Source: Betaproteobacteria bacterium RIFCSPLOWO2_12_FULL_62_13
GTDB lineage: Bacteria; Pseudomonadota; Gammaproteobacteria; Burkholderiales; SG8-41
Assembly: GCA_001771985.1 (NCBI GenBank)
Contig: MERG01000361.1
Coordinates: 1 to 44,653, forward strand
Reading direction: 5' to 3'
DNA length: 44,653 nucleotides
A program made the translations under genes and the position numbers. The notes under the pieces are model-generated. The model was not told the DNA's origin and made no database searches. It was given only the letters and a program-made list of their open reading frames with translations. Positions within the stretch are counted from its first letter, which is position 1; each line of letters starts with the position of its first letter. Shown here piece by piece: positions 512 through 620 of this stretch.

Positions 512-620
512 GGATGTAGGATGAAGGATGAAGGATGAAGGATGAAAGATAAGAAAACGAAAACAGGCAACAGGCTTCCGCCTCGCCCTTTGATCCTTCC
601 GCCTTCCGCCTTCATCCTTT
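512..620. repeat. Heptamer tandem-repeat hairpin module: (GGATGTA)(GGATGAA)x4 at 512-546, ~28-nt spacer, pyrimidine-rich 7-nt-periodic arm TTCCGCC/TTCATCC at ~575-620
   Basis: Read directly from the sequence. The arms are imperfect reverse complements. The module lies between the guaA stop (627) and the tadA start. Confidence 0.9.

Follow-up and report, generated by a model that had tools for sequence, protein, structure and literature searches.

Heptamer arrays and hairpin modules in the window

The 44,653-bp stretch of contig MERG01000361.1 analysed here (hereafter the window, 60% G+C), which belongs to the uncultured Betaproteobacteria bacterium RIFCSPLOWO2_12_FULL_62_13, carries the protein-coding genes tadA, guaA, guaB, dksA, pnp, rbfA, infB, lexA, imuA, imuB, and dnaE2, together with the genes for tRNA-Arg, tRNA-His, 5S rRNA, and 23S rRNA. 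Short tandem arrays with a period of 7 nt lie among these genes, and some are followed by a partially complementary array with which they make up a two-armed hairpin module (Table 1). A preliminary description of the same DNA had named all of these flanking genes and stable RNAs correctly and had reported nine arrays, every one of which was recovered at its position, while one small further array, located directly upstream of the ribosome-binding site of the open reading frame (ORF) 38029-38937, had been left out.

Tandem Repeats Finder (TRF) detected 10 period-7 arrays in this stretch, against an expectation of 1.13 +/- 1.09 (maximum 5) from 100 dinucleotide-preserving shuffles. A stricter lag-autocorrelation scan yielded six arrays at period 7 (0.0 expected) and five at period 14 (0.13 expected), and none of the other periods from 4 to 13 exceeded the background in the window. 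Period 7 and its multiple 14 are specifically enriched, and head-to-tail 7-nt copies occur beyond chance, as in the heptanucleotide long simple-sequence repeats (LSSRs) of other genomes. The same arrays are present in three independent metagenome assemblies, which are 99.7-99.9% identical, and an assembly artefact is thereby ruled out. The heptamer arrays are real, statistically solid, and non-random.

Table 1. Heptamer arrays and modules of the window, with the strand of each feature and the scan or inverted repeat by which it was located.
Feature	Position	Strand	Units or remarks	Located by
guaA-tadA spacer, filled by two-armed module	500..626	-		TRF, inverted repeats I2/I3
guaA-tadA arms	509-550; 575-620		GAAGGAT x6 (+ strand); CCTTCCG/TTCATCC units
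guaB-guaA spacer, one-armed array	2274..2300	-		TRF period 14, lag scan
tRNA-Arg(tct)/tRNA-His spacer, two-armed module	17922..18000	-	GTGTTGA-type units	inverted repeat I4
Module after dksA, two-armed	18713..18791	+	GTGAGGC/GTGAAGC x4 ... CCCTCACACCTCACAA
infB-rbfA spacer, two-armed module	22813..22894	-		inverted repeat I5
lexA-imuA module	28317..28422	+	10-nt period	TRF period 10
imuB-dnaE2 spacer module	30624..30717	+		TRF, lag scan
In-frame module inside dnaE2 (~aa 839-869)	33240..33330	+
Three-unit pyrimidine array	37993..38013	+	TTTTCCT ATTTGCT ATTTACT
23S-5S spacer array	44388..44423	-	GTGAAGG/GTGAACG/GTAAAGG x5 (rRNA strand)	TRF

Six clear two-armed modules had been claimed in the preliminary description; four loci proved robust (guaA-tadA, tRNA-Arg/tRNA-His, after dksA, and infB-rbfA), three show only weak pairing, chiefly on the minus strand, and two are one-armed. 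The four robust ones fold far better than shuffled controls on the transcribed strand and are the longest local inverted repeats in the window. The guaA-tadA module (dG -50.1, z -2.85 on the transcribed minus strand; z -4.38 on the plus strand) forms a stem with 2-nt internal loops every 7 nt, and a variant unit, GGCGGAA instead of GGATGAA, is spread along one arm only, indicating that the arms evolve through slippage within each arm. The module between the two tRNA genes folds with a dG of -38.9 (z -3.4). The one following dksA begins with the first base past the dksA stop codon and folds well on both strands (z -4.1 on plus, -4.6 on minus). In the infB-rbfA spacer (dG -44.6, z -3.3), the units read GGATTAG AGGCTAG GGGCTAG GGACTGG ... 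CCTAGCC CCTAGCC on the transcribed strand; the 5' arm begins at the infB stop codon, the pairing stops about 4 nt short of the rbfA ATG, and the final CCTAGCC unit ends 11 nt upstream of that ATG. Convergent paired arrays of the Xanthomonas type, with the G-rich arrays on opposite strands, are represented in the window by these four modules and by three weak two-armed ones.

The remaining loci are less regular. The lexA-imuA module consists of GCAGATGAAC units at 28317-28348 and a degenerate inverted copy at 28382-28422, and it folds weakly on the sense strand (z -1.0) and somewhat better on the minus strand (z -1.9, with 11 G.U pairs). A decayed purine-rich tract (30624-30659) precedes the pyrimidine heptamer array (30681-30717, CTCCTCT-type units) in the imuB-dnaE2 spacer, where the array stops 8 nt before the dnaE2 ATG at 30726; no hairpin is predicted on the sense strand (z +1.4), and the minus strand folds with a dG of -39.1 (z -1.4). 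Inside dnaE2, (CCAATCA)x4, translated as QSPITNHQS, comes after an AT-rich purine tract; the array is unpaired in the sense fold, and the minus-strand value of this stretch (z -3.3) comes partly from a separate GC hairpin. For these three loci, the pairing of the arms on the minus strand depends on G.U pairs. The guaB-guaA array reads GTGAGGA GAGAGGC x2 on the transcribed strand, includes the guaB stop codon TGA (2299-2297) in its first unit, and gave no hairpin on either strand on folding (z +0.6), while the 23S-5S array is mostly unpaired in the predicted folds.

In a comparison of 16 modules, the sense strand did not fold consistently better than the antisense strand. The minus strand folds equally well or better in five of the six window modules compared, with guaA-tadA a near tie in which the plus strand is slightly better, and in three lexA-operon modules the untranscribed strand folds better by 12-17 kcal/mol. 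G.U pairs amount to about 33 on the minus strand and 7 on the plus strand in the window, whereas the modules of relatives hold 23 and 23. The G-rich minus strand is presumably the leading-strand sequence of the window, and the GC skew of the plus strand is negative across nearly the whole window (-0.02 to -0.15). It is possible that the strand asymmetry is an effect of replication-linked mutation bias; a C-to-T bias on the lagging-strand template, or the formation of hairpins in that template, could lie behind it. Since relatives lack such a G.U bias, no conclusion was drawn from the asymmetry of the window. Nor can selection at the RNA level be read from G.U pairs on the sense strand, given the lack of a consistent sense advantage in the 16 modules.

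The polarity of the modules is much clearer. In 20 of the 21 modules from the window and relatives, a G-rich 5' arm is combined with a C-rich 3' arm, far from an even split, so that the G-first order put forward in the preliminary description is real; its further argument, that the polarity is the same on either strand, is uninformative, since any inverted repeat reads alike on both strands. G-first versus C-first is nevertheless a real binary property and essentially invariant. The TGA-purine core that had been proposed for the units is partly a matter of composition, but an excess of stop triplets goes beyond it: 26 of 36 arrays, hand-chosen and not fully independent, have a purine-strand unit with a stop triplet, against 16.4 expected when the letters of each unit are shuffled (P ~1e-4). 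TGA is the most frequent triplet (19), followed by TAG (6) and TAA (2), and TGG was counted three times. Since both 7 and 10 leave a remainder of 1 when divided by 3, no reading frame stays open across three such units.

With regard to gene context, seven modules of the window occupy co-oriented spacers, one is convergent, one is intragenic, and none is found in the approximately six divergent spacers, although the sample is small. The placement between co-oriented genes that had been described therefore holds for seven spacers and fails for one, because dksA lies on the plus strand and pnp on the minus strand; the dksA/pnp spacer also contains the canonical terminator of pnp (18834-18812), and the module is located upstream of that terminator. 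The stem typically begins 1-9 nt past the upstream stop codon, often including the stop codon itself, and ends 3-30 nt before the downstream start. This preference for positions after stops and before starts, between aligned or convergent ORFs and rarely between divergent ones, is the context bias of the Xanthomonas arrays. On the coding strand of dnaE2, in the window and in the orthologues, only the stop-free pyrimidine orientation is present, as expected from a tolerance filter.

Recurrence and unit turnover in relatives

Orthologous spacers were compared in two sets, one centred on infB, with 80 betaproteobacterial species (1.37 Mb), and one centred on guaA, with 80 loci (0.46 Mb); two syntenic relatives are referred to below as L084 (GCA_040961615.1) and L085 (JGI 3300006865 bin). 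The closest relatives, metagenome-assembled genomes labelled Betaproteobacteria or Burkholderiales, share amino-acid identities of 78% for IF2, 83% for DnaE2, and 85% for GuaA with the window. Strong arrays number six in 44.6 kb of the window, about five in 14.8 kb of L085, and three in 14.9 kb of L084, while the infB-centred set holds only 12 strong period-7 arrays in 1.37 Mb, which is about 15-fold sparser than the window, and the guaA-centred set holds three in 0.46 Mb. A high density of heptamer arrays is a trait of this lineage.

The few strong arrays of these two sets recur at the same sites. About seven of the 12 strong arrays of the infB-centred set sit in the infB-rbfA spacer, and all three of the guaA-centred set sit in the guaB-guaA spacer. 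Two-armed heptamer hairpins between infB and rbfA were found in L001, L005, L008, L010, L011, L016, L041, L084, and L085, and their units have turned over: GGCTAGG is shared by the window and L084, but GTGATGA is used in L085, GGATTGA in L005, GGATTCA in L008, GGNGTRA in L010, TGAGTGT in L011, GGGGAAG in L041, and GTTGCGG in L001. In the same way, two-armed guaB-guaA modules with four further unit types are present in L094, L095, L119, and L144. A conserved ancestral infB-rbfA hairpin is ruled out as a general claim, because about half of the 74 betaproteobacterial infB-rbfA junctions are shorter than 25 nt or overlapping, which means that a hairpin there is not required; relatives without modules often show a plain hairpin in the infB-rbfA and guaB-guaA spacers.

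In other species, the infB-rbfA, guaB-guaA, lexA-imuA, and imuB-dnaE2 spacers hold hairpins of this kind built from unrelated units. Presence, absence, and copy number of the modules also differ at shorter distance, as close relatives have gained or lost whole units or have no module. The infB-rbfA module of L084 has exactly two extra units in its 3' arm compared with the window, that is, a single 14-nt indel, which together with the spread of variants within one arm amounts to the signature of slippage, namely, changes of whole units among relatives. L084 lacks the lexA-imuA and imuB-dnaE2 modules, with spacers of 17 and 25-35 nt, respectively, and has an imuA-imuB module instead, in which the 10-nt unit of the lexA-imuA module of the window is found again. 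L085 carries both the lexA-imuA and the imuB-dnaE2 modules, with yet other units.

The site inside dnaE2 is a hypervariable insertion in a linker that some orthologues lack; other orthologues carry peptides of a 7-aa period here, whereas P0097 and P0120 do not (alignment A1). L085 has a (TCACGNG) array of about 10 units there, and the peptide of P0008 reads VTDHESRVTSH.... A second in-frame hypervariable insertion in DnaE2, at 31105-31260 (~aa 127-178), was also observed. The perfect palindrome CCTCTCTCCCAGAGGGAGAGAGG lies in it, as do an inverted repeat of 46 nt, which is C-first, and a tandem repeat of 24 nt (31201-31246), whose copy number is strain-variable, with one unit fewer in L083. 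Similar 'GERxGxR...GxGVRG' insertions occur in P0002, P0048, P0067, and P0077, while other orthologues lack them. In addition, the stop-free pyrimidine arm of the imuB-dnaE2 module has been called as an N-terminal extension of DnaE2 (MMSDECRVKNDILRSALC...; L085 9995-10072, P0004, P0008), and the heptamer modules of this lineage thus mislead gene callers into false N-terminal extensions.

Two other hairpins were noticed in the comparison. One, AAAAATGGGCGAACCGCCCATCTTCTT, located upstream of rimP (27398-27425, plus strand), is conserved in the window, L084, and L085 and has a weak sub-threshold Rfam match to the Burkholderia sRNA Bp1_162 (34.6 bits; gathering score 50); the LexA box ACTGTATATAATTACAG precedes lexA in the same divergent spacer. 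The other is a perfect 11-bp hairpin, AGTTTTCAGCC ... GGCTGAAAACT, at 44302-44348 directly upstream of the 5S gene, of which an 89-96% identical copy exists in L084 (14512-14558), about 1.2 kb downstream of dnaE2 and apparently at an unrelated site. Judging from these two copies, it may be a true dispersed palindromic element.

Proposed origin and possible roles of the modules

Taking together the period-7 excess, the hairpin potential of four loci, the rapid turnover, gain, and loss of units at orthologous spacers, the polarity, and the absence of both family resemblance and G-quadruplex (G4) potential, we interpret the modules, with moderate confidence, as heptanucleotide simple-sequence palindromes that were born and reshaped in place via 7-nt slippage and whose role as RNA, if any, would be generic. 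They are not genes, riboswitches, or mobile-element copies, and their function is probably non-specific. Under such an origin, slipped-strand replication would add or remove whole 7-nt units in each arm, an inverted duplication or template switching within the palindrome would supply the second arm and partly re-match it to the first, and the hairpin-prone tandem arrays may in turn promote more slippage. Selection would only filter where and in which orientation the arrays stay. They could persist only where extra structured untranslated sequence is harmless, namely, directly behind the stops and ahead of the starts of co-oriented or convergent genes, between stable-RNA genes, and, as in-frame copies, within a protein linker that tolerates them; they would not persist in promoter-bearing divergent spacers. 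Once transcribed, they may fold into long imperfect hairpins looping out nearly the whole spacer, with generic and sequence-independent effects such as blocking 3' exonucleases, offering a site to double-strand RNases, or modulating coupling. As the modules would still be long hairpins at the RNA level, they may incidentally protect the upstream mRNA or be cut by such RNases. The lack of a consistent sense-strand advantage, together with the presence or absence of modules in close relatives, argues against a specific and indispensable RNA function.

Several points weigh against this slippage origin. The same few spacers, infB-rbfA and guaB-guaA, are reused in many species, which neutral birth does not predict unless there are mutational hot spots or selection for a hairpin. 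The arrays are unchanged among the three strain-level assemblies (99.7-99.9% identical), while the 24-nt repeat of dnaE2 varies among them, so that the arrays are not hypermutable on that timescale. Slippage alone also leaves the G-first polarity (20 of 21 modules) and the stop-triplet excess unexplained. Two hypotheses might account for the polarity: a G-first hairpin would mask the C-rich, Rho-utilization (rut)-like arm once it is transcribed, in either direction, or only arrays with a stop codon would survive slippage where they abut the end of a gene. Finally, slippage and template switching are deduced rather than directly observed, and the census covers the 44,653-bp window, which appears to be the complete contig.

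Alternatively, the modules might be selected intercistronic RNA hairpins, with a stem that, by looping out the spacer, leaves only a few unpaired nucleotides between the upstream stop codon and the downstream start; we regard this as rather unlikely. Such a hairpin would maintain translational coupling, by termination-reinitiation or by unmasking of the start, for downstream genes without a Shine-Dalgarno sequence, or else act as an exonuclease barrier or RNase III site, with the 7-nt period being merely the mutational route. It is consistent with this that most modules have their 5' arm starting 1-9 nt past the stop and their 3' arm ending 3-30 nt ahead of the start, and that the same gene pairs are 17-35 nt apart where L084 lacks modules; such a stop-to-start geometry would, however, result trivially from the growth of a module within a minimal spacer (10-30 nt), as found in L084. 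No Shine-Dalgarno match was obtained for tadA, rbfA, imuA, dnaE2, or guaA (duplex dG above -2.6 kcal/mol), compared with -7 to -11.6 for the first genes of operons; however, the same is true of truB, imuB, and rimP, operon-internal genes that no modules precede. The recurrence of hairpins with unrelated units and still matching arms at infB-rbfA and guaB-guaA, and the frequent plain hairpins there in relatives without modules, also speak for selection. Against it, about half of the infB-rbfA junctions lack a spacer, folding is not consistently better on the sense strand (the three lexA-operon modules even fold better untranscribed), and some modules are found behind dksA or in the spacers of tRNA and rRNA genes, for which coupling is irrelevant. 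A more elaborate version, in which a functional 'register-tolerant' intercistronic hairpin bridges 80-130 nt from stop to start codon, appears still less probable to us. In a bacterial analogue of ribosome shunting, the terminating ribosome would reinitiate on, or unmask, a downstream gene that lacks a Shine-Dalgarno sequence; as each arm is a tandem array, slipping by one whole unit would leave the pairing intact, G-first would be selected because the C-rich, Rho-loading (rut)-like arm is paired once transcribed in either direction, and, provided that each unit holds one stop triplet, a 7- or 10-nt period (1 mod 3) would close the three frames within three units. The footprint of a cold-shock domain is 6-7 nt, and several purine arms carry GGA every 7 nt, both of which would fit a protein that binds the arrays with one domain for every 7 nt or so of single-stranded RNA or DNA, with the complementary arm masking the binding sites; the candidates would be cold-shock proteins (Csp) or ribosomal protein S1 on the pyrimidine arm and CsrA on the GGA motifs of the purine arm. 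The S1, Csp, and CsrA families were proposed to bind TAACTGA heptamers in Beggiatoaceae (PMC4679880), and a heptamer-binding partner was postulated in Nostoc (bioRxiv 10.1101/2022.06.06.494920). The units differ so widely within this genome (GGATGAA, GTGTTGA, GCTAGGG, GTGATTG), however, that no single sequence-specific protein fits, and no candidate protein is linked to the loci, which makes such binding arrays improbable.

Transcription terminators or attenuators inside operons would account for the long, stable stems, for the modestly T-rich tails (5-6 T in 10 nt) after the dksA, tRNA-spacer, and lexA-imuA modules, and for the terminator-like hairpins in the guaB-guaA spacer of relatives. 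We consider them improbable as well, since a consensus scan called none of the module stems, yet found the canonical terminators of pnp, rpsO/pnp, and dnaE2; the 10 nt that follow the stem contain between 1 and 6 T, a T tract is missing from the guaA-tadA and infB-rbfA modules (1-2 T), and the loops are long and the stems interrupted. That the modules are REP/REPIN-type copies or MITEs (miniature inverted-repeat transposable elements) mobilised by a Y1 transposase is barely credible. A Y1 transposase gene does exist in the window, presence and absence of modules differ between close relatives, and the array of 10-nt units occupies one spacer of an operon in the window but another spacer of that operon in L084. 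The transposase, however, is of the IS200 type, scoring 105.5 bits with the NCBI model for IS200/IS605 (cut-off 55) and 23.3 with the one for the REP-associated tyrosine transposase, RAYT (cut-off 80); it is the only Y1 transposase of the window, and no arrays flank it. No window module shares more than 18 nt with another, and within the window neither the many near-identical palindrome copies of REP/REPIN families nor the shared ends, repeated copies, or direct-repeat flanks of MITEs were seen; terminal inverted repeats beyond the arrays, target duplications, and a conserved GTAG-type head are likewise lacking. The mobile-element interpretation is largely refuted within the window. Regulatory G4 repeats, as proposed for the heptamers of Xanthomonas and Nostoc, are the most remote candidate of all: the Xanthomonas arrays, which were shown to form G4 in vitro, are alike in architecture and in the typical number of about four units, but none of the 14 purine arms of the window has four runs of at least three G and most have none, which refutes such a role here at the level of sequence.

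Two other identities were examined and rejected. A known RNA family is ruled out, as no Rfam 15 match was obtained at any module, either at the gathering threshold or at E <= 1, and phase-variation contingency loci are ruled out because the arrays lie after stops and in operon spacers and are identical in the three strain-level assemblies.

Some additional features of the window are recorded here for completeness. The Y1 transposase gene (7608-8147, minus strand) encodes a 179-aa IS200/IS605 protein and is situated beside a GC hairpin, CCCCGCGG...CCGCGGGG; the site also comprises 8172-8192 and 8211-8945, and the transposase gene abuts a 5'-truncated gene for an XrtA/PEP-CTERM-associated ATPase (profile positions 126-237 of 269), so it looks as though an IS200 insertion disrupted the ATPase gene. 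The divergent ratA-like/smpB spacer contains a 139-nt direct duplication (5132-5270 and 5357-5495; 84% identical, 225 nt apart). The region 14343-16923 holds two ORFs without Pfam or NCBIfam match (14736-15167 and 15003-15896), and behind them an ORF for a TctC receptor, which spans just positions 1-162 of the 274 in the profile, and a 148-aa AMP-binding fragment is located near the rRNA operon (43518-43964); these ORFs and the fragment are probably pseudogenes or remnants.

Comparison with known heptamer repeats

REP-type elements can stabilise upstream mRNA. Like REP, BIME, and REPIN sequences, the modules are extragenic palindromes between co-transcribed or convergent genes, but the analogy to REP/BIME elements drawn in the preliminary description fails on sequence conservation and copy number: REPs are high-copy conserved families with a cognate RAYT, whereas the loci of the window show no sequence relationship to one another, and the only transposase of the Y1 family is IS200-type.

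The likeness to the short tandemly repeated repetitive (STRR) heptamers of cyanobacteria, which had also been pointed out, is apt. According to the work of Mrazek (2007), as cited in PMC4679880 and PMC4692102, the heptanucleotide is the commonest long simple-sequence repeat in most genomes, Burkholderia is among the richest, and the suggested origin is slippage related to the stretch of DNA held by the polymerase. As far as they are described there, LSSRs and the cyanobacterial STRR, GGGGA(C/T)T, resemble the present arrays in their favoured 7-nt period, their lineage-specific and patchy distribution, the polymerase slippage proposed for them, and their enrichment in non-coding DNA and high-GC genomes. 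The LSSR and STRR reports deal mainly with direct arrays and with few inverted pairs in Nostoc, whereas about half of the arrays here are paired into hairpins. In Nostoc, several heptamer families coexist, and deletion modestly alters reporter expression (bioRxiv 10.1101/2022.06.06.494920).

Another parallel is offered by the TAACTGA repeats of marine Beggiatoaceae and some cyanobacteria (MacGregor 2015, PMC4679880), which are also intergenic, consist of 2-6 units near start codons, and carry stop codons in the unit so that all three frames are closed. They differ from the modules in having a single conserved unit and direct repeats, with one inverted case in 170 sets and no hairpin predicted, and their stop-containing strand lies directly upstream of starts, which is the opposite of the placement here (PMC4679880).

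The closest counterpart is known from Xanthomonas. In Xanthomonas campestris, 186 arrays of GGGAATC-type heptamers were described, 70 pairs of which are convergent and capable of forming a stem-loop (Rehm et al. 2015, PMC4692102). Four units are preferred, 89-93% of the arrays are intergenic, mostly between aligned ORFs with few divergent, and the complementary array lies within 50 nt upstream of the next ORF; their length and sequence vary among close relatives, no link to insertion sequences (IS) was found, and they are transcribed but of unknown function (PMC4692102). We found no later publication giving heptamer arrays a function. The modules of the window share with the GGGAATC arrays of X. 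campestris and X. axonopodis the 7-nt tandem units, the number of about four per array, the convergent pairs forming a stem-loop, the preference for aligned ORFs with some convergent and few divergent or intragenic cases, the variation at the same site among relatives, and the lack of an IS link. The novelty implied in the preliminary description is consequently not upheld, as paired heptamer arrays had already been described in Xanthomonas (PMC4692102) and heptamer repeats in cyanobacteria. Xanthomonas, however, has one dominant unit (GGGANTN) with G3 tracts, for which a G-quadruplex was proposed, whereas the window has a different unit at every locus and no canonical G4 arm; one module here has a 10-nt period, and the host is an uncultured betaproteobacterium.

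The architecture itself is thus already known, and what is new is the host lineage, the diversity of units from locus to locus without G4 potential, the positional recurrence with full turnover of units, the quantified polarity and stop-triplet bias, and the in-frame copies in DnaE2. Paired heptamer arrays number hundreds in Xanthomonas, and any model of the class is constrained by the recurrence at infB-rbfA and guaB-guaA despite unit turnover, the stop-triplet excess, and the in-frame DnaE2 copies. Compared with Xanthomonas, the present lineage is a natural control, whose arrays agree in architecture, in context bias, in the number of units, and in being G-first, but consist of diverse units that are not G4-forming; the G-quadruplex explanation is therefore weakened for the whole class, and the comparison points to a sequence-independent cause, such as a 7-nt slippage step, hairpin geometry, or constraints from translation or Rho.

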